Part shown: positions 1 to 38,904 of the stretch, one piece after another | Layout: each line of letters starts with the position of its first letter | How positions within the stretch are numbered: position 1 is the first letter of the stretch | IMG/VR virus record: IMGVR_UViG_2061766007_001531 | Length of the DNA stretch: 48,866 nucleotides | Reading direction: 5' to 3' (one strand) | DNA from: an uncultured virus (IMG/VR IMGVR_UViG_2061766007_001531) | Lineage: Duplodnaviria; Heunggongvirae; Uroviricota; Caudoviricetes | Made by a program: the position numbers and the translations under genes | The notes under the pieces: model-generated | The model's database searches: none | What the model was told of the DNA's origin: nothing | Seen by the model: the letters and a program-made list of their open reading frames with translations, nothing else

Positions 1-1175
1 TGACCCAGTATTACTGGGAGGCACAACAGAACGACCTAATTAACAGTGAGGTGACGTCGTTGGTTCCCTTTAGGCGCGTGCAGCAAACTTTTTGATGCAT
101 AATAAAAAGATTTGATTTGTATAATCTCCTATTAATTTCCGCGCCTAGTAGTTTTGGTAGTATGAGCCGTTGGATCGCTCAGAGCCTGCTCTGGTCGAGA
201 TCTTCTACCATATGAAACGGACAAGTGTTGGGCCTAGTAGCAAAGGAACGCACTTTAAACACGGGATTTGCTACAACGTCTCGCAGAGCAGAGAACAGAC
301 GTTAAATAGGAGTATGCTCTAGTGTCGCCTTTAGAGCGGTAGCTGGCACGATAAATATTAGGAACTGACTCCCTGCGCTTTCAATGGACGATAGCTAGAT
401 AGCAGGTTAAAAATAGACTCTTCGCCCGTCTCANNNNNNNNNNAGTTTTGATAGTATGCGCCGTTGTACCGCTCGGTGCCTGCACCGGTCGAGGTATTCT
501 ATCAGATGAAACGGACAACCGGTCTCTATGTTCTTTCGAATCGGTATATAAAATGCGAAGACCACCCACTATAGGGGATTGAAAAATATATAGCACGCCG
601 CCTTTAGAGCGGTAGCTGGCGTGTAATGAAATTAGGAACTGACTCCAACGCCACCAAAAGTACACGGGGCGAAATAAATGAAGTACTAGCACAAGTGATC
701 GCCACACGGAAAGTGTCTGAAAAACAAAAATGGGGCGCTCCAAGAACAGGAGCGAGATCAAAAGGCTCTTGCTGGTCACAGAGGGTGTGTAGAAAGCAAG
801 TAAAACACGGGTATGCCCANNNNNNNNNNTTTGTCATGGCACGTGCTTAATGAGTACATGCTTCATACTGCTGTGCCAGCATCGTTTAATTGGTGCTGAA
901 TACTAGTTGCACTAAGCAAGTTATGATTCTCCAGTATGAGTAAAAACTACCGTTTGGGCTGCGTGAGATGCGCCGGGTCCACCCTACACCGCCGCGTTGT
1001 CCTGACGCGGGATATAAATCAAATCATTGCGATGGACCGCAAAGAGCACGCGGTATATAAAGAGAATGCTCTCGCCGTGACCTATAGGCACGGACTTATG
1101 GAGATTAGGAGCCATGAATACGCTATTTGGCTTAATACTCTGTGGATAGCTAGCAAACAAATCCTAATTTCCTTT
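1..1175 (+). ncRNA. GC-rich non-coding structured RNA tract made of tandem H-type pseudoknots and hairpins (contains N gaps at 434-443 and 820-829)
   Basis: No credible ORF or SD. Repeated stem/loop/A-rich linker/loop-complement units, e.g. GTGTT225-229:AACAC258-262 with GTAGCAAA237-244:TTTGCTAC267-274, and AACGTCT275-281:AGACGTT297-303 with AGAGCA285-290:TGCTCT315-320. Compensatory changes between the 150-224 and 444-517 copies. Confidence 0.7.
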
Positions 1176-1212
1176 TATGCCCGAGTGGTGGAATGGCAGA
1201 CACCACAGACTT

Positions 1213-2043
1213 ATTAATTTGAGCACTTGGATACGAAAGTTCCAATGTGAATGTTCCCTAATTCGGTGAAAGTCCAAACTTTGGATTACGCCGAGCTAAA
1301 TTGGATTACGCTATAAAAATTTTTTCCAAAGCGTAAAAGAAAATAAAATAGTTTCCTTCTACTGTAATCACTCTTATAATGAGGTGATGAATATGCGAAA
1401 TGATATTATTGAACGCAAAAATGAAATTCTTCAATGGATTGAAGAAAATCAATCAAAAGCTTATATGTCCCGTGAGTTACATTGCAAACAAGAAACATTA
1501 AATAGATATTTGCAATTATGGGGCATTACTTATGAAGGAAACATGAGCGGAAAAGGTATGACTAAACAATCTAATAAAGGAATGAAATTGTTAGATTATT
1601 TAGCAAATAGTGCGGATGTACAGACTAATAAAGTACGACGTAAATTACTTGAAGAAGGTTATAAAGAATATAAATGTGAATGTTGCGGTAATACTGAATG
1701 GATGGGACATCCTATTCCATTGGAGGTGCATCATAAAGATGGCGACCGTAATAATAATACATTAGAAAACTTTGAACTTTTATGTCCTAATTGCCATGCT
1801 TTTACTGATAGTTATCGTGGAAAAAATAGTAGAATTAATCCATAAATGTGTAGAGACTATATAGGAACTATCTAAGTAATTATAGCAATAGATTACCAGT
1901 AATGGAGTGTAGATTACTTCGGCAGAAGTCAGCGTTAAATGGATCGTTTGATATATTGAAAATCTACTAAGCTATATTTTATATGATAAAGACATAGTCC
2001 AGACTACAACACGCAAGTGGCTATGGCAACATAGTGTAGTATG
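1213..2043 (+). mobile_element. Group I intron (IC3-like) in the tRNA-Leu anticodon (U^AA)
   Basis: 5' CTT^ATTAATTTGAG P1, P/Q-like core TTCGGTGAAA...CGCCGAGCTAAA, R-like GTGTAGAGACTA (~1847-1859), S-like AAGACATAGTCC (~1989-2000), terminal G at 2043. Same insertion site as cyanobacterial trnL(UAA) introns. Confidence 0.9.
1393..1845 (+). CDS. Intron-encoded HNH homing endonuclease
   Basis: CECCG...LEVHHKDGDRNNN...LLCPNCH HNH/Zn motif, N-terminal HTH-like segment, SD GAGGTGA. Confidence 0.9.
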   Translation: MRNDIIERKNEILQWIEENQSKAYMSRELHCKQETLNRYLQLWGITYEGNMSGKGMTKQSNKGMKLLDYLANSADVQTNKVRRKLLEEGYKEYKCECCGNTEWMGHPIPLEVHHKDGDRNNNTLENFELLCPNCHAFTDSYRGKNSRINP

Positions 2044-2133
2044 AAAATCTGTTGCTTGTATAAGCGTGCCGGTTCAAGTCCGGCCTCGGGCACTTTAATA
2101 TAATAGAGGGTAGCTTATAAAGCNNNNNNNNNN

Positions 2134-2218
2134 GCTATTGCGGCTATGGTAACATAGTGTAGTATGAAAATCTGTCGCTCTAATCAGCGTGCCGGTTCAA
2201 GTCCGGCCTCGGGCACCA
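2134..2218 (+). tRNA. Second variant of the intron 3' end plus tRNA-Leu exon 2 (2167-2218, with CCA), after an N gap
   Basis: Near-identical to 2017-2092 with a different variable arm. Likely a strain variant or a duplicate. Confidence 0.7.
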
Positions 2219-2332
2219 GTTTCCGACCAGTGATTCTCAATGTCGTAAAACTCATAGATCAAACGCGCTGATTTGGCGCACCGAGGGTAGCTGACAGGGC
2301 GCCCTCTATTTTTGTATTATGAGGAGAAATGT

Positions 2333-2809
2333 ATGAAAAGATTAATTACAATTTTACTCGCTTTTATTTTAATATTGGGATACACTTATGCCGAATCTCC
2401 CGCAACTCCGACGGATTTAGAAGAAATTGATGATAATGATTATGGATGCATAACCGCACAATTAGATAGGCAAGTTTTTCTTCAAATTTTAAATGAAAAG
2501 TCCTACTATTGTGTGGGCGATAAAGTTACTCTAGTTGCGATTCTTATAAATTTTCTTCCCGAAGATAAATGTACTTTTGTTTGGGAATATACTACAGATC
2601 ATATCACATGGCACATCGTTCCTAATGCTGATGAACAGACATATACTTTTATACTTAATGAAGAAACTACAAATTATTATTGGCGCGTAACGGTATATAT
2701 TGAAGATCCAGAGCCAATTAATATAGCAAAATTATACAAATTACATGATTATGTAACACCACTTGGCCTTTCATTATTTGTAAAACAGACAGGAGATTGT
2801 TTTGATTAA
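2333..2809 (+). CDS. Secreted/surface protein with signal peptide and possible Ig-like fold
   Basis: MKRLITILLAFILILGYTYA signal peptide, SD GAGGAG, beta-rich W/Y pattern. Confidence 0.65.
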   Translation: MKRLITILLAFILILGYTYAESPATPTDLEEIDDNDYGCITAQLDRQVFLQILNEKSYYCVGDKVTLVAILINFLPEDKCTFVWEYTTDHITWHIVPNADEQTYTFILNEETTNYYWRVTVYIEDPEPINIAKLYKLHDYVTPLGLSLFVKQTGDCFD

Positions 2810-2820
2810 GGAGTGATACT

Positions 2821-2940
2821 ATGGACGCTTTATTTGAATCACTTGTAAATACAGGATGGGGCGCAATTATCATCGGAATATTTATTATTATTGCCCTAAT
2901 AATTCATTTTTTAGATGATAATCATAATCCAAAAATTTGA
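2821..2940 (+). CDS. Small membrane peptide (39 aa)
   Basis: SD AAGGAG and a single hydrophobic stretch GAIIIGIFIIIALIIHF. Confidence 0.55.
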   Translation: MDALFESLVNTGWGAIIIGIFIIIALIIHFLDDNHNPKI

Positions 2941-2965
2941 CTTTTTATAAAAATTATATTATAAT
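2937..2965 (+). promoter_or_regulatory. sigmaA/sigma70 promoter for the tRNA cluster
   Basis: TTGACT-17-TATAAT. Confidence 0.85.
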
Positions 2966-2997
2966 TTATATGTAATAGAGAGATTTCTCTCTGATAT

Positions 2998-3068
2998 GCC
3001 GCTATCGTACAATGGTAGTACTAGTGCTTCGTAAGCACTGTATGACAGTTCGAATCTGTCTGGTGGCT
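2998..3068 (+). tRNA. tRNA-Thr(CGU)
   Basis: Cloverleaf; AGTGC-TTCGTAA-GCACT; T loop TTCGAAT. Confidence 0.9.
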
Positions 3069-6490: not shown

Positions 6491-6689
6491 CAAGGGTACT
6501 GCTTTCCTAGCGGAATAACTGCAAGCAGCGGCAGAAGTGTCGATAGATGGGAGACGGATTTAGTAACTACTAAACACGATATTAGTAGTGAGGTAGTCGT
6601 AATTAAATAAGGAACCACGTGGATTTACCATCAACTTTTTTATTATTGAAGTGGTTATTCAATATATTATACTATAGTAGGTGATACGT

Positions 6690-6811
6690 ATGAGAACTAG
6701 AGCTGAAAAACGTCATAATGATTGGAAAAAGGCTATTCGTAAACGTAAAATCATCAATGCTTATGGATGGGATTATTATGATAATCTTCATCAATATAGT
6801 AAAAATAAGAT
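6690..6811 (+). CDS. Hypothetical protein, partial (cut by N gap); variant of 6964-7200
   Basis: MRTRAEKRHNDWKKAIRKRKIINAYGWDYYDNLHQYSKNK is nearly identical to the downstream ORF. Confidence 0.7.
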
Positions 6812-6831
6812 NNNNNNNNNNGTTTAAATAT

Positions 6832-6915: not shown

Positions 6916-6963
6916 CGTTATGTGGTATAGCCACATATATTATACTATAATGGAGTGATGCAT

Positions 6964-7200
6964 ATGCGCACAACCGCGGAAAAACGTCACAATGATTGGA
7001 AGAAAGCTATTCGTAAAAAGAAAATTATTAATGCTTATGGATTCGATTACTATGATAATCTTCATCAATATAGCAAAAATAAGATTCATTGTTCATGTCC
7101 GTTATGTAGCGGAAAAAGTGATATGAATCGTGGAATTGTTTCTATATCCGATAAACGTAAAATTGAGGATATGGATAGTCAAGAATTTGACAACGAATAA
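6964..7200 (+). CDS. Hypothetical protein with HCSCPLC Zn motif
   Basis: ORF track; SD GGAGTGA. Confidence 0.75.
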   Translation: MRTTAEKRHNDWKKAIRKKKIINAYGFDYYDNLHQYSKNKIHCSCPLCSGKSDMNRGIVSISDKRKIEDMDSQEFDNE

Positions 7201-8326: not shown

Positions 8327-8919
8327 AAGAAAGACGCTTAATTCAGTAAATTGGAACCCAGTGAAGAAGTGTTGACCGCACTGCTGGGGACACCTGAAGA
8401 GCATCCGAAATCTTGATGGGATACTTTCAAGTATCGGGCGCAAAATCGGTAACGATTAGCGATAGCGGAGAAACTCCAAATGCTAAGGGTGGGCGCTATT
8501 ATATCTAGTTGTAAACGCACGATTCCTTTCGGCGGGACAATAGAAAGCCTGGTGAATAGCTAGGCCGAATCCAGATAAGGGTTTAGCTGGTGACTGTATC
8601 AAACTCTGGAAACACCAACAACTCGCTACTGTCGATGAAAGCCAGAAATGGCATATAAGAAAGGTTTACGGTACTCGCAGGTCAAGACAGCAAGTTCAAT
8701 GGAACAATTCTAGAAAAGAATTATTGATTGATTAATTGCTGAATGGTTTGGCTCGGAGTTCAAGGTAAGCAGTCCTTGTCTAGCTAGGCGAAAGCAGGCA
8801 TAGAAAGTGATTGGGTCGCTCCCAACGCTCAGCTCTATGTTTCTAGGTTGCGGAATATGCGATGGGGATATAATAGTAAGGAGAAACACCTCAAATTTAT
8901 TGAATTAGGCGCCTTTCTT
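8327..8919 (+). ncRNA. Large structured ncRNA (~590 nt), ROOL-like
   Basis: The ends pair over ~26 nt (8327-8352 with 8894-8919), with an inner long-range helix 8496-8506:8866-8876. Own promoter, no ORF. Size and tRNA-cluster context fit ROOL; the family is assigned from memory. Confidence 0.7.
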
Positions 8920-12115: not shown

Positions 12116-13618
12116 ATGAATGATTTTTTAAAGGCTATGAAAGAAGATACGAATTATACTCTTACAGAGAATTTTGGCATTACTCATAAATCCACTTTAA
12201 ATAAGGTGCTTGATATGTTTGGTATGGGCGGTTCCATGCGGAACCGCTCTGATGACGACGTTATCGTTATGTTCGCTAAGGCATACGACGAAGATCCGAC
12301 TCTGGCTCTGCGTTGTTTGTTCTATCTGCGCGATGTACGTGGTGGCCAGGGCGAACGGCGTTTCTTCCGTGTCTGCTATAACTGGCTGGCAAAGGAATAT
12401 CCGGATGAAGCCGAACACATGATTCTGAAAGTGGCTGAATACGGTCGTTATGATGACCTGTTCGCACTTTTTGATACTCCGTGTGAAGGCTCTATGATGG
12501 GCTATATTGCCTATCTACTGAACACTAATAAGGATCATTTGCTTTATAAGTGGATGCCTTCCATTAATGCTTCATCCAAGAATACGCAGGCTCGTGGTCG
12601 CAAGTTCGCGCGCGAGTTTGGTATGACTGAACGGGCATATCGTAAGATGCTGTCCGAGGGTCGTGTAGCATGTAATCTGGTTGAATCTCTAATGAGCCAG
12701 AATCATTGGAATCAGATTGCTTTTGACAAGCTGCCTTCTCGCGCAGGTCTTCTCTATAAGAACGCTTTTATGCGTCGTGAGGAAACCAAAGCTCGTTATG
12801 CTGAGTTTATGAGCAATAAGGAAACCAAGGTTAACGCGGGAGTACTAAATCCGGTGGATATTGCCCATCAGATCTTCGCGTATCGTGGCTATAAACCTTC
12901 TGCTACTGAGCGTCAGGCTTGGCAGAAATACTGGGATAATCTGAAGGACTATTATGATGGTCGTGAAGAACCTGGTATCGCTATCGTTGACGTTAGCGGT
13001 AGCATGTGGGGCCAGCCGCTGGAAGCTGCGGTTTCTATGGGCGCCTACATTGCCGAGCGTGGCAAGGGCCCATTCCAGAACCATTTTATCACCTTCAGTG
13101 ATAATCCTGAACTTGTCGAATTTAGCGGTCGCGATATCTATGACAAGTTCCATCGCGCGCAAGGCGCTGAATGGGGTGGAAGTACCAATATCGAAGCTGT
13201 CTTCGATTTGCTTTTGCGTACCGCAGTTGGTCATGGTACCAGTCCGAAAGATATGCCTAAAACTCTTTATATCTTTAGCGATATGGAGTTCAATGCATGT
13301 ATATCCGCTGGTCCTCGTTCACAGAGTCGTTGGCTTTCTAGCACTCGTATGCTCAATCGGAATCAGATTGATACCGTTATTGAAGCGCAGGCTCATAAAT
13401 GGCGGCAGTATGGCTATCAGATTCCTCGAGTCATCTTCTGGAACCTTGACGCCCGTCAGAACAATATCCCCGCCATCGGTGATGGATTCTCCTATGTAAG
13501 TGGTTTCTCCATGAACATGGTTGAATGTATTCTATCTGGCAAGGATGGCGTGGCTCTGATGCTAGAGAAATTGAATAGTGATCGCTATTCTTCTATCCAT
13601 AGTATCAAGGAGGCTTAA
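12116..13618 (+). CDS. DUF2828 family protein (TROVE/Ro60-like with vWA domain)
   Basis: TEN N-terminus, LFYLRDVRGGQGERR, MIDAS DVSGSM, STNIEAVF, IFSDMEF, IFWNL, VSGFS. Confidence 0.85.
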   Translation: MNDFLKAMKEDTNYTLTENFGITHKSTLNKVLDMFGMGGSMRNRSDDDVIVMFAKAYDEDPTLALRCLFYLRDVRGGQGERRFFRVCYNWLAKEYPDEAEHMILKVAEYGRYDDLFALFDTPCEGSMMGYIAYLLNTNKDHLLYKWMPSINASSKNTQARGRKFAREFGMTERAYRKMLSEGRVACNLVESLMSQNHWNQIAFDKLPSRAGLLYKNAFMRREETKARYAEFMSNKETKVNAGVLNPVDIAHQIFAYRGYKPSATERQAWQKYWDNLKDYYDGREEPGIAIVDVSGSMWGQPLEAAVSMGAYIAERGKGPFQNHFITFSDNPELVEFSGRDIYDKFHRAQGAEWGGSTNIEAVFDLLLRTAVGHGTSPKDMPKTLYIFSDMEFNACISAGPRSQSRWLSSTRMLNRNQIDTVIEAQAHKWRQYGYQIPRVIFWNLDARQNNIPAIGDGFSYVSGFSMNMVECILSGKDGVALMLEKLNSDRYSSIHSIKEA

Positions 13619-27194: not shown

Positions 27195-27740
27195 ATGAAG
27201 ATTTATTTAGCAGGACCAATTTTTACATACGGTGATCTACTTCGTAATACTGAGTGGGCAGCTAAAATTCGTGCGGCTGTGCCTGGAGTAGATTTATATT
27301 CTCCTGTTGAAAACACTGATATTAATGGTGTTGAAGGTAAGAAAAAGTTTGCAGGTTCTCAAGAAATTGCTAATAGTGATAATATCAGATTAAATAATAC
27401 TGATATTCTTGTGGCTTGCATTGATGGTGATGTTCTTCCATCAGGCACTTGCGCCGAAATCGGTAAATTTCACGAAAAGATTGAACGCGGAGATCATAAA
27501 TATATTGTTGGTATTTGTACTGATAATAGACAAATGTTTCTTACTCATAGTGAAGCCAAAGATAAGGGCGGTGCCGCCTCTCTTGGCGAACAACAGTATA
27601 GTTATCAGAACCTATATGTAACAGGATTAATTAAGCAAGGCGGTATTCTTGTAAGTAATATTGAAGATGCTATTGCTTTTATTAAAGAACACGAAAGTGA
27701 ATTTAAACCCAAAGAAGAGTTTAGATCTGATTGGGTATAA
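27195..27740 (+). CDS. Nucleoside 2-deoxyribosyltransferase family protein
   Basis: KIYLAGPIF, YSP, D......DILVA.IDG...SGT.AEIG. Confidence 0.85.
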   Translation: MKIYLAGPIFTYGDLLRNTEWAAKIRAAVPGVDLYSPVENTDINGVEGKKKFAGSQEIANSDNIRLNNTDILVACIDGDVLPSGTCAEIGKFHEKIERGDHKYIVGICTDNRQMFLTHSEAKDKGGAASLGEQQYSYQNLYVTGLIKQGGILVSNIEDAIAFIKEHESEFKPKEEFRSDWV

Positions 27741-28236: not shown

Positions 28237-29508
28237 ATGCTATATAATATTAATGACAAACTACCTGCAAAAAGACTATTCGTCGCGGCAATGCAGCAGG
28301 TCATTGCCTGTTTCGTTGCTACCGTACTAATTCCACAGATTTGTGGAGTACCGATTGCACCAGCCCTTGTAGGTGCTGGTATTGGTACACTAATTTATCA
28401 ACTATTTACTCGCGGCCAGTCCCCAATGTTTATTTCTTCATCGGGAGCTTTCGTAGCCGCAATCATCGGTGCACTTGCTATCGGAACAGCACCTAATTTT
28501 ACTGCTGTAGCGATTGGCGGTATTATTGTTGGCGCTATTTACTGTATTATTGGCCTTATAATTAACAATCGTGGAACTGCTTGGATTAATAAATTACTTC
28601 CACCGGTTGTTATAGGTCCAGTAGTTGCGGTTATCGGACTTAATCTAGCAACATTTATTCCAACCTATTTTCAAATGAATGGACAGTATAGTCTATTAGG
28701 TTTTGGATTAGGTATACTTACACTTATTCTAACTGCTTTAATTTCTCATTATGGTAAAGGTTTTATAAAAAATCTTCCATTTTTGTTTGCTATCCTTATT
28801 GTATATGGAATCGCGGCAGTCCTAACGGTATGCGGCGTGCCTATTATAGATTTTAGTGTCTTTAATGGTATTCATCTATTTCAAGTACCCGACTTTGCGT
28901 TCTTCCATCTAAATTTTGGAGATTTCCAACTCGGATGGTTAGTACAAGTATTATTACTATTTGCGCCCTTATCATTAGTATGTATTGCAGAACATATTTC
29001 TGACCATAAAGCTTTAAGTGCAGTTATTGGAACCGACCTTACACAAAATCCTGGCGTTGGAAAAACTCTTATTGGTGATGGTATTGCTTCTACATTTGGC
29101 GGCTTTACTTGTGGTCTAATGAATACTTCTTATGGCGAAAGCGTTGGAACAACCGGTTTTAGTAAAATATGTTCAAAGTATGTAATTACTTTGGCCGCAG
29201 TAATTATGGCGGCTTCAGCTTTCATCGGGCCGCTTCAAGCCTTCCTAGTATCCATTCCATCATGTATTTTTGGCGGCGTAAGTTGTTGCCTCTATGGATA
29301 CATTACATTAAGCGGTATTCGTACTATTATTGACAATCATCTAGATTTAGTTCATAACAATAAGAATATTCTTATTGTAGCATCAGTTTTAACTATTGGT
29401 GTATCTGGCGCCGTATGTGACTTCGGTGTAATTAGTTTAGGAACCACAGCTCTAGCTATGCTAGTTGGCATTATTCTCAATCTTATTCTTAAAGAGAAAA
29501 AAGATTAA
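28237..29508 (+). CDS. Uracil/xanthine permease (NCS2, UraA/PyrP-like)
   Basis: Multiple TM helices; SSSGAF, PPVVIGPV, EHISD, NTSYGE signature. Confidence 0.9.
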   Translation: MLYNINDKLPAKRLFVAAMQQVIACFVATVLIPQICGVPIAPALVGAGIGTLIYQLFTRGQSPMFISSSGAFVAAIIGALAIGTAPNFTAVAIGGIIVGAIYCIIGLIINNRGTAWINKLLPPVVIGPVVAVIGLNLATFIPTYFQMNGQYSLLGFGLGILTLILTALISHYGKGFIKNLPFLFAILIVYGIAAVLTVCGVPIIDFSVFNGIHLFQVPDFAFFHLNFGDFQLGWLVQVLLLFAPLSLVCIAEHISDHKALSAVIGTDLTQNPGVGKTLIGDGIASTFGGFTCGLMNTSYGESVGTTGFSKICSKYVITLAAVIMAASAFIGPLQAFLVSIPSCIFGGVSCCLYGYITLSGIRTIIDNHLDLVHNNKNILIVASVLTIGVSGAVCDFGVISLGTTALAMLVGIILNLILKEKKD

Positions 29509-36830: not shown

Positions 36831-38904
36831 ATGATTAAAAATGTAGATTTCCAGCAAACTATGGAGACTGCTTTTCTTAAATATAGTGCTTCGGTCGCAC
36901 AAGAGAGAGCACTGCCCGATGTAAGGGATTTTTTGAAGATTGGTTTACGTCAAGGTTTGTACGCACAATACACCAATAAGCTAACTCATAAGGATAAGTT
37001 TCAGAAGGCTCAGAAGTCTGTAGCAGCAGCCATGACGCAGAGTTATGTACACGGAGATGTTGCGATGTACGATACATTTATTCGTGTATCTCGGCCCTGG
37101 ACCGCTCATTATCCTCTTGAAGAAGTTCAAGGTAGTTATGGAAANNNNNNNNNNCGACTCTCACGCGGCCGCACGCTATGTTGAAATGCGCGCTGCTGAA
37201 CTCACAGACTATATGTTTGCGGGTCTTAAAAAGAACGCAATTAATGAATGGTATTGGAACTATGATGATTCAGAGCAAATTCCGTCAGTATTCCCGTCAA
37301 TTGGCTATTGGAATATTGTTAATGGTTGTTCAGGTATCGCCGTGGCAATGGCTACTTCGGTACCACAATTTAACCTTAAAGAGGTAAACGATGCACTCAT
37401 TAAAATTATTCGTGATCCTAATGTTACGTACGATCAGATATATTGTGCTCCGGATTTTGCTACGGGCGGTACAATTACTAATGCCGCGGAAGTAAAAGAA
37501 AGTCTAAAGCGTGGCGGTGGAAAATCAATACGTATGCGCGCAACACTAAAATATTATCCTAATGATAATATGATTCAAGCAACAGAACTACCATATAGTG
37601 TATTCACCAATACTGTAATCAATCAGTTGGCTGAACTTACACAAAATGATCCAGAATATGGTATTGATAAAGTTATTGATCATACTAAGAAAGAAGCAGA
37701 TATTCGTATTTATTTAAGTAAAGGGACAAACCCGCAGAAGATGATGGCAAAGCTTTATCACGACACATCACTTGAATACTGGTTCTCAATTAATATGGTA
37801 TTGCTTGATAAAGGAAGATTCCCTAAGGTCTTTGGATGGCGTGAAGCCTGCGATGCTTATATTGCTCATATTAGAGAATGCAAGCGTAATATAATCCAAT
37901 TTGAACTTGATAAGGCTGAAGCTCGCTTAAATGTAGTAGAAGGACTACTAATTGCCGTAGCAAATATTGATGAAGTAGTTGCTATCATTAGAGCGTCGGA
38001 AAGTCCTTCTGCGGCGGCAACAGCATTGATAAATAGGTTCGGATTCAATAAACCGCAAGTAGATGCGATTCTTGCGATGAAACTATCCGCTCTGACCCGA
38101 ATTGATGGGATAAAATTAAATACAGAGAAGGAAGAACTTAATAGGTTTATTGCTGACCAGAGACACTTACTATTAAGCCCCCAGGACTTGGATCAAACTC
38201 TTATAGATACACTAAATCTTGTATCTGAAAAATTTGGTGATTCAAGAAAAACACAAATTTCTAATATACTCGGTGAAGAGGAAGAGCCTGAAGAAATCCA
38301 AGAAAAAGATGTTGCTGTCCTTCGTTATGATAGCACCATCAAAGTAGTAGAAATGCCGCTAAAGAAGAATCTTAAGCCACAAGAAGTCTACTATACAACA
38401 AATCTTGGCTTCCTTACGCTAATCACTGATACAGGAAAAATGTATAATGCTTCTTTAAGTAAGTTAAAAATTGGTAAAGAATATAAAATCTCAGAAGTAT
38501 TTGAGAATGCAGGAGAACATCCGCGCCTGTTGATTGATACTATGAGTTTTAATGCCTACAATTCACTTACTTGTATCACCAAGCATGGATTTATTAAAAA
38601 GAGTGCCATCTCTGAATACATTGCACGTTCAAAGAAAGGTGTAGTGGTAATGAAACTTGAAGAAGGCGATTCTATTGTATCGGCAATTCTTAGTAGTGAT
38701 GATGACGATAAGATCGCAGTTATCGGAAATAATGACTATTATAATTGTTATCCTTTAAGTGATATTAGCTATACCGGACGAACAACTAAAGGCGTTAAAG
38801 CGATTAAACTTGAAAAAGATGGTTCTGTAAAAGAAGCCAAGCGGGTAGGCGATAATACTTATAAAATTACCGGTCGCGCGGTAAAAGGAGTTAAAAATGG
38901 ATAA
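36831..38904 (+). CDS. Type IIA topoisomerase subunit A (GyrA/ParC-like); frame broken only by the N gap at 37145-37154
   Basis: RALPDVRD.LK, YVHGD, QGSYG | AAARYVE (catalytic Tyr), NGCSGIAVAMAT, PDFATGG; short beta-pinwheel CTD. Confidence 0.92.

Follow-up and report, generated by a model that had tools for sequence, protein, structure and literature searches.

Within its transfer RNA (tRNA) cluster, phage T4 carries small stable RNAs that are not tRNAs and whose function is unknown; they are co-transcribed with the tRNAs and freed by tRNA-processing enzymes. Here we analyse a leader RNA in front of a tRNA-Leu gene, and above all its module A, in a stretch of 48,866 nucleotides (nt) of DNA from an uncultured virus of the Caudoviricetes (IMG/VR record IMGVR_UViG_2061766007_001531), the whole of which is called the window. 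An earlier note on this DNA had described two RNA modules, A and B, each present twice between positions 150 and 646, and had proposed that they bracket exchangeable pseudoknot units. Two further phage RNAs, ROOL and GOLLD, likewise lie near tRNA islands and have no known function; published accounts describe abundant ROOL RNA in at least one strain and divide GOLLD into a conserved and a less conserved part, with tRNAs sometimes linked to it (10.1101/2024.12.08.627333; PMC5737381). The cow-rumen motifs are not discussed in the main text of PMC5737381. We found no literature naming cow-rumen-3, and none describing such a modular leader or the swapping of whole pseudoknot units in phage RNAs.

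The region is part of a plus strand non-coding leader RNA of more than 1.1 kilobases (kb) that ends at a tRNA-Leu(UAA) gene. This leader sits in the tRNA cluster of large, uncultivated ruminant-gut phages (approximately 180 kb) and is a chain of small, independently folding RNA modules. Like ROOL and GOLLD it is phage-encoded, non-coding, rich in pseudoknots and linked to tRNAs, and it is present in four rumen RNA libraries. In contrast to these RNAs, each of which is one large nested fold, it consists of small separable units that are exchanged at the strain level. There is no sequence or model match of ROOL or GOLLD to A or B (neither model matches 1-3000 at E ≤ 10), and self-assembly would apply to the leader by analogy only. 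Compared with the small T4 RNAs, to which it is likened by description and not by sequence comparison, the leader is much longer and modular. The cow-rumen-3 RNA (RF03083) shares the leader, the strand and the phages with A. Its Rfam model, however, has 141 positions and includes neither A, B nor the hairpin upstream of A, and A has a fold of its own. A and B are neighbours of RF03083, not members, and no RF03083 match was found on 150-646, even at E ≤ 10.

Fold and homologues of module A

Module A is a real, conserved and folded RNA domain. The two copies in the window are 75 nt long, 84% identical and spaced by 294 nt, as found by repeat search. Helix P1 is followed by a P2-P3 hairpin at a three-way junction, and a pseudoknot joins the strand after P1 with the 3′ tail. 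The helices quoted in the earlier note are correct: TGGTAG/CTACCA versus TGATAG/CTATCA, GATC/GATC versus TACC/GGTA and CAGAG/CTCTG versus CGGTG/CACCG.

Homologues of A were collected from phage and metagenome contigs of the cattle and sheep gut; the relative loci carry L numbers. A pattern made from the A hairpin matched five IMG/VR contigs and 112 metagenome loci. Fifteen of the latter carry A, three of them on the same contigs as the IMG/VR matches and one identical to L013, and the others are chance matches, mostly in GC-rich DNA. In bacterial genomes 68 loci match the A pattern and none has A sequence on either side of the match; of the rejected loci the AT-rich ones were inspected and judged unrelated. 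As an independent route, a cow-rumen-3 motif scan of IMG/VR gave seven loci. A covariance model of A placed A upstream in all four cow-rumen-3 loci from contigs new to the A pattern, and these four copies carry compensatory changes at positions that were fixed in the first A pattern. The copy in L310 was found with a pattern based on P1. Copy 1 is 98.8% identical to L014, and copy 2 is 94.5% identical to L146, L205 and L011. Covariance models had been proposed as a check on A, and homologues with covariation beyond the two window copies were indeed found. The suggestion that A is a new motif also holds relative to Rfam 15: in 1-3000 no family matched A or B at E ≤ 10, and only a chance SNORD49 match (E 3.4) was seen, across 287-370.

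Among 21 distinct copies, 99.3% of the 418 cells in the four helices of A are paired, versus 89.8% in shuffles. Changes on both sides were found at 12 of the 20 pairs (39 cells), and none of 500 shuffles matched the observed pairing, the double-change counts or the covariation score. If the partner strand is shifted by one to three columns, pairing falls to 29-49%, and RNAalifold recovers P1-P3 unguided from the 21 homologues. P1 (six pairs, two with double changes) crosses the pseudoknot helix, which is 100% paired in the 21 copies; two of its five pairs have double changes, which come from L308, with L310 in the same state. With crossing helices, complementarity and compensatory change, A belongs to the H-type pseudoknots with an inserted hairpin. 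The copy in L303 changes a U-A to a C-G pair in P1, a C-G to a U-A pair in P2 and a G-C to an A-U pair in P3. The earlier claim of selection on RNA structure is thus borne out for A. In the main subfamily the unpaired stretches are better conserved than the helices. The pseudoknot CCGTT:AACGG and the CCTG loop had been called invariant, which is true for both window copies but not for the wider family. In L308 and L310 another hairpin stands in this place, together with the pseudoknot CCATC/GATGG, and the loop is CCCG in L306 and another one in L308.

In all 21 copies two pairs of A (27-58 and 34-49) are G.U or U.G; six more cells contain G.U. Since these pairs exist only on the plus strand and would be C.A on the other, the plus strand is the folded one. 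This bears on the explanation that A and B act as DNA, either as recombination or protein-binding sites or as a small mobile repeat, with the helices being palindromes. The module borders coincide with recombination breakpoints between strains and the window has two copies, which would fit this explanation. However, pairing is kept through G.U, the stem sequences change while the pairing stays, and the region is present in the four RNA libraries. In addition, A was found once per locus in 17 pattern-derived loci and once per record in five of five phage records (two of them at least 98% complete, with 181 and 177 kb), and is therefore not a dispersed mobile repeat. We consider a DNA element highly improbable.

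The fold also raises the question of self-cleavage. A could be a small ribozyme or processing element that cuts the leader off from the upstream hairpin or from tRNAs and so sets the 5′ end of the cow-rumen-3 RNA. The strand order P1, P2, P3, P1′, P2′ is that of the nested double pseudoknot of hepatitis delta virus (HDV)-like ribozymes, likewise with a hairpin placed between the strands that cross. Conservation of the unpaired nucleotides is very strong, and A has a fixed place between the upstream hairpin and the remaining RNA. HDV-like ribozymes, however, have five paired regions including P4 and P1.1 and a catalytic cytosine in the strand that joins P4 to P2. In A only 5 nt lie between the 3′ strands of P1 and of the pseudoknot, which leaves no room for a P4 hairpin, and this strand (TATGA, GATGA, AATGA or TAGGA) contains no candidate for the catalytic cytosine in 21 of 21 copies. 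Furthermore, L308 and L310 have a different internal loop in the hairpin, and no Rfam ribozyme family matches A at E ≤ 10. Self-cleavage by A is therefore unlikely.

Exchangeable units, module B and the two copies

Seventeen runs recorded as RNA contain part of 444-819, and all of them are labelled bovine or sheep gut or bovine metagenome; six further runs with part of this region carry no library record. Contigs from four RNA libraries, which belong to four studies, cover most of 142-1175, including A, B and the units between them. No conclusion was drawn from the uncovered parts of these contigs. One of the four is a size-fractionated small-RNA library, in which all bins over 95-1175 have depth and none of the five bins over 1176-1400 does (tRNA exon, intron and start of the open reading frame (ORF)).

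Pseudoknot-type units of 45-75 nt are located between and behind the constant parts of the leader, where they are inserted, lost and swapped among strains. By eye, ten types of unit follow A among the 21 distinct copies. The segments 225-275, 373-433, 519-594 and 767-819 recur in other loci and in other orders; 276-371 and 595-766 do not. In L179 and L211 something other than B follows the equivalent of 446-594, and RNA contigs join 222 to 276, 222 to 669, 223 to 736 and 238 to 791. These differing followers of A and alternative joints show that the cassette-like exchange proposed earlier is right, that it concerns the whole leader and that B itself is a cassette. The units between A and B had been described as pseudoknots. 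By complementarity they are H-type-like; covariation was seen by eye in one stem of 225-275 and in the stems of 373-433. The first of these units also occurs in L011, L200 and L205, where the stem GTAGCAAA/TTTGCTAC shows compensatory changes, and units related to the second with covarying stems are present in L010, L011, L012, L135 and L211. The unit at 276-321 shows the complementarities AACGTC/GACGTT and AGAGCA/TGCTCT and has no match in the module-A loci.

The bracketing of units by A and B did not hold as a general architecture. B is absent from 17 of 17 module-A loci searched and from IMG/VR, and the constant partners of A, which is present once per relative genome, are the upstream hairpin and the downstream cow-rumen-3. 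B is one cassette-type unit specific to this lineage, with a fixed loop and tail and a covarying stem. Its core (326-347/599-620, 22 nt) and its tail (16 nt) are 100% identical between the copies in the repeat search, and the two occurrences of the composite B pattern in the window compare with 0.00 expected from 100 shuffles. The stems, correctly given in the earlier note as GTGTC/GGCAC versus CACGCC/GGCGTG, are set apart by two double changes and one change from a wobble to a Watson-Crick pair, with the 18-nt loop and the tail unchanged. RNA contigs carry T325C (X1, X3) or G346A (X8), and the 325-346 pair is U.G, C-G or U-A, with pairing kept. B copy 2 is covered by RNA contigs of X1, X3, X8 and X12, and one RNA contig alters the loop (G607A).

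In the DNA collections no homologue of B was found beyond the window; B was seen in the rumen RNA libraries of the four studies. The exact B 20-mer and the two-part B pattern gave no loci in IMG/VR, and the 16-nt tail gave four, all unrelated coding DNA. A B 14-mer gave at least 108 loci, with none B-like among the matches listed, and a covariance model made from the two copies found only these two in the window and the 17 module-A loci. A long-range partner of the B loop was rejected, as the best duplex in 1-1400 (−18.5 kcal/mol) was equalled or bettered with 29 of 100 shuffled versions of the loop. The same holds for 8 nt of the loop that by eye are complementary to A copy 2, which are likewise not significant.

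The diversity of the units is relevant to two further explanations. In the first, A is a ligand-sensing aptamer, which as a riboswitch would control read-through into cow-rumen-3 and tRNA-Leu. A compact, aptamer-sized fold on a pseudoknot junction, near-invariant joining nucleotides and a promoter 130-300 nt upstream of A would fit such a role. A riboswitch, however, combines a conserved aptamer with a conserved expression platform upstream of the regulated gene, and with ten unrelated units after A in 21 copies there is no conserved expression platform. In addition, no terminator-like site follows A on the plus strand, the downstream region is a non-coding RNA and a tRNA instead of a metabolic-pathway gene, and no riboswitch model matches A at E ≤ 10. 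We regard a riboswitch as very unlikely.

The second explanation concerns the cassettes. In type III toxin-antitoxin systems the antitoxin is an array of pseudoknot RNAs; ToxI-like arrays are tandem near-identical repeats of approximately 34-36 nt beside the toxin gene, and a phage can escape type III defence via a pseudo-antitoxin array. The cassettes might be RNA decoys in the phage-host conflict that mimic type III antitoxins or act as sponges for host ribonucleases, with A and cow-rumen-3 as constant handles by which the array is stabilised or processed. Both systems are arrays of small pseudoknot RNAs, the antitoxins being used in phage-bacterium conflict. The leader units are small H-type pseudoknots with A-rich linkers within a tRNA island, and their fast turnover among near-identical strains, with ten followers of A and many RNA-contig joints, resembles an arms race. 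But the leader units are all unlike each other and longer than the antitoxin repeats, Tandem Repeats Finder gives no row in 1-1400 (minimum score 30), and beyond the pairs of A and B the repeat search found one weak 20-nt family. A toxin-like partner was not identified, ToxN-like proteins not having been searched for, and the nearest ORF (1384-1845) encodes an HNH endonuclease. Drawn by analogy, this role of the cassettes is improbable.

The window contains five runs of exactly ten N (434-443, 820-829, 2124-2133, 6812-6821 and 37145-37154). Three of the five are flanked by diverged duplications, which are 84-88% identical. Such flanking duplications are the signature of strain variants set on either side of a scaffold gap, and repeats spanning these runs in the window are therefore to be distrusted. 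RNA contigs nearly identical to 276-433 run on into another 38-nt unit and then into 645 or 669, bypassing 444-644. Each of the two A copies is nearer to copies of other contigs than to its counterpart, and copy 2 is the sole copy without the upstream hairpin. It is thus likely that the two copies are strain alleles of one locus, which were placed in tandem by the scaffolder, rather than paralogues within a single genome. The repeats described in the earlier note are present, but the tandem crosses the N run at 434-443 and may be an assembly artefact. The covariation argument for A holds under either the tandem or the allele reading.

Layout and possible role of the leader

A is a constant part of the leader, fixed after an upstream hairpin, termed H, and before cow-rumen-3. 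The 3′ strand of H directly precedes A. In 18 relatives H has a stem of 7-10 base pairs and an AT-rich loop of 33-87 nt, which always begins with CAGCAA. This string is found 55-109 nt before A in all 19 copies with at least 60 nt of preceding sequence; the exception is copy 2 of the window. The H stem covaries (TAGGCGC/GCGCCTA, TAGGCACA/TGTGCCTA, TAGACACCT/AGGTGTCTA, CGGCGCG/CGCGCCG and AGACGCTA/TAGCGTCT). A promoter scan of the H loop gave none. In 8 of 20 relative loci a consensus sigma-70 promoter (TTGAC[AT]-N16-18-TA[TA]AAT) precedes A by 127-306 nt. The window begins inside the transcription unit; in L306 the same kind of 5′ unit directly follows a TTGACA-N17-TATAAT promoter. Two H hairpins in tandem were observed in L012, L013, L141, L157, L179 and L211.

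Downstream of A and on the same strand, cow-rumen-3 is present at gathering level in 10 of 17 loci and in three of four further loci, and a diverged form is present in L310. It always follows A wherever the locus sequence is long enough. The tRNA-Leu(UAA) gene at the end of the leader is interrupted by an intron of 832 nt, which ends in G and splits the gene between U34 and A35, where the group I intron of tRNA-Leu genes is classically inserted. The Rfam group I intron model does not match the intron at E ≤ 10. The HNH endonuclease (phrog_10822, E 5e-28) is encoded within it. Relatives carry an intron-less long-arm tRNA of 82-85 nt in the same place, and L179 has a 47-nt insert at the same split site. 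The smallest unit, that of L303, consists of the promoter, the H hairpin, A, a 43-nt unit, cow-rumen-3, approximately 235 nt, tRNA-Leu(UAA) and a terminator-like hairpin; this minimal form is approximately 620 nt long.

Some strings are common to A and cow-rumen-3. A (161-172) and the 3′ part of cow-rumen-3 (931-958) share AGTATGAG followed by CCGTT(T)GG, and the loops of both repeatedly contain strings of the type AATGAG or TATGA. Judged from these strings, common descent or a shared binding partner could be the reason. Pairing of A with cow-rumen-3 was considered and rejected: there is no covariation, and in L303 P1 is changed while the matching string in its cow-rumen-3 is unchanged.

The best explanation overall, which we consider rather probable, is that A is the constant domain of a modular phage tRNA-Leu leader RNA. 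Leader and tRNA would be transcribed together from the sigma-70-type promoter upstream of A. The tRNA-processing enzymes would then release the leader, with the ribonuclease P (RNase P) cut at the 5′ end of the tRNA making the 3′ end of the leader. Once released, the leader may function as a structured RNA that is stable, comparable to ROOL and GOLLD. A, the hairpin and cow-rumen-3 would form a constant tertiary core or a docking site for a protein, for another RNA or for self-assembly, and the variable cassettes would be an evolving payload. Within this scheme our best guess is that A might be the tertiary or partner-binding domain that stays constant in a large phage RNA. The proposed working as a whole, from co-transcription and release to a stable RNA with a constant core, is put forward tentatively. 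A further-reaching proposal, which we hold to be improbable, is that hairpin, A, cassettes, cow-rumen-3 and tRNA-Leu represent a third class of large phage RNAs beside ROOL and GOLLD. The core would fold or assemble into a particle, the cassettes (B among them) would form a hypervariable insert and be exchanged among strains because each neutralises a different host factor, and the whole would be an RNA counter-defence island in a tRNA operon.

Several points weigh against A as the constant domain of such a leader. The single-sequence folding energies are no better than those of shuffles (z = 0.72 and −0.28 for the two A copies, 0.80 and −1.23 for those of B), and the support for structure is therefore comparative and not thermodynamic. 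All copies of A come from one habitat and from related phages; the A model has an effective sequence number of 1.44, so that the double changes reflect few independent events. Covariation of the pseudoknot is thin and comes from one sub-lineage (L308 and L310), and the homologue filter required CCGTT and AACGG, though the AT-rich rejects are plainly unrelated. B has no homologue in IMG/VR or in the module-A loci, and its structure is deduced from two copies and two single-site variants. The N runs may be masks instead of gaps: the one that interrupts the topoisomerase gene leaves its reading frame intact and is not flanked by a duplication, which leaves some probability for a true tandem duplication. 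Contigs from RNA libraries can contain DNA and reveal neither strand, ends nor level; they cannot prove transcription and argue only weakly for expression. Release by RNase P is proposed by extension from established tRNA processing. The function, partner and assembly suggested above for the leader are conjectural.

The Rfam motif cow-rumen-3 appears to make up a single section of a far longer, modular phage RNA, of which A and the upstream hairpin are other constant parts, and its family annotation should therefore be extended. The locus is also a natural experiment in RNA modularity, with near-identical strains that differ by whole pseudoknot units among fixed domains. The small form of L303 and the presence in rumen RNA libraries make the leader tractable for probing and cryo-electron microscopy. 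It offers a practical route to the question why large phages put ornate RNAs beside their tRNA genes.

Coordinates and phage setting

Table 1. Positions of leader modules, tRNA-Leu and flanking duplications in the window.
Feature	Position	Strand	Basis or remark
5′ leader unit, hairpin of the GACC..GGGAGGCAC type	1-60	+	2-24 100% identical to L126, L200
H hairpin	70-148	+	stem TTAGGCGCG (70-78) with CGCGCCTAG (140-148); AT-rich loop starts CAGCAA
Module A copy 1	150-224	+	repeat search, homologue alignment, RNAalifold
Helices of copy 1	P1 155-160/205-210; P2 173-176/199-202; P3 180-184/189-193	+	
Pseudoknot of copy 1	167-171/216-220	+	
Loop CCTG of copy 1	185-188	+	
Two variable pseudoknot-type units	225-275, 276-321	+	complementarity, relatives
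Module B copy 1	322-372	+	stem 322-326/345-349, loop 327-344, linker, tail 357-372
Variable unit, CTGCGCTTTCAATGGACGAT...GCAGGTTAAAAATAGAC type	373-433	+	372-429 100% identical to L205
Module A copy 2	444-518	+	repeat search, homologue alignment; read as second allele
Variable unit X and small hairpin CCC-ACTATA-GGG	519-594	+	446-594 93% identical to L179, L211
Module B copy 2	594-646	+	stem 594-599/618-623, loop 600-617, tail 631-646
Further leader units	647-819	+	767-819 conserved pseudoknot-type unit; 768-819 100% identical to L013, L146, L157, L229
cow-rumen-3 RNA (RF03083)	838-983	+	Rfam model, 145 bits
3′ part of leader, small structured units	984-1178	+	1004-1301 87% identical to L014; 1036-1199 90% to L141
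tRNA-Leu(UAA) gene	1179-2093	+	5′ exon 1179-1212, intron 1213-2044, 3′ exon 2045-2093; read from sequence
Duplication, module A	150-224 and 444-518		around N run 434-443
Duplication, tRNA-Leu 3′ exon	2019-2093 and 2142-2216		around N run 2124-2133
Duplication, ORF	6651-6811 and 6922-7085		ORF cut by gap at 6812, restarts at 88% identity

After the N run behind the tRNA-Leu gene, 2134-2218 holds a second, diverged intron end and 3′ exon.

No convincing gene was found in 1-1380; five of six ORFs tested there have no Pfam match at E ≤ 0.1, and the sixth (936-1217) has only a sub-threshold match to Vint (E 0.063, 13.5 bits versus a 27-bit cut-off). Searches of 100-1380 with blastn against 50,697 phage records gave no match. 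In the window cow-rumen-3 is found at its one position only, where its score compares with a gathering score of 86.7.

The window is a fragment of a large phage, and all ORFs of at least 160 amino acids as well as most shorter listed ORFs are on the plus strand. Its genes include those for topoisomerase II subunits, a DnaB-like helicase, a primase, a RecJ-like exonuclease, a DNA ligase, PhoH and RNase H; several HNH or homing endonucleases are also encoded. Altogether, 15 tRNA genes are located between 2998 and 7662. A full-length ROOL RNA (RF03087, 277.6 bits) at 8333-8910 follows 670 nt past the last of them, and ROOL was found in one of the five related phage records that carry module A.

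Three further observations concern proteins encoded in the window. A protein of 500 amino acids (12116-13618) matches the phrog_850 family, annotated as RNA-binding protein (E 3e-119), and the Pfam domains DUF2828 and DUF7788; a sequence relative was not found in the PDB. On the strength of these matches it is a candidate partner for the structured RNAs of the phage. A permease of the xanthine/uracil type is encoded at 28237-29508 (Pfam Xan_ur_permease, E 5e-57) and a nucleoside 2-deoxyribosyltransferase at 27195-27740, and glycosyltransferases are encoded as well. Together these annotations suggest a nucleotide or DNA-modification metabolism.

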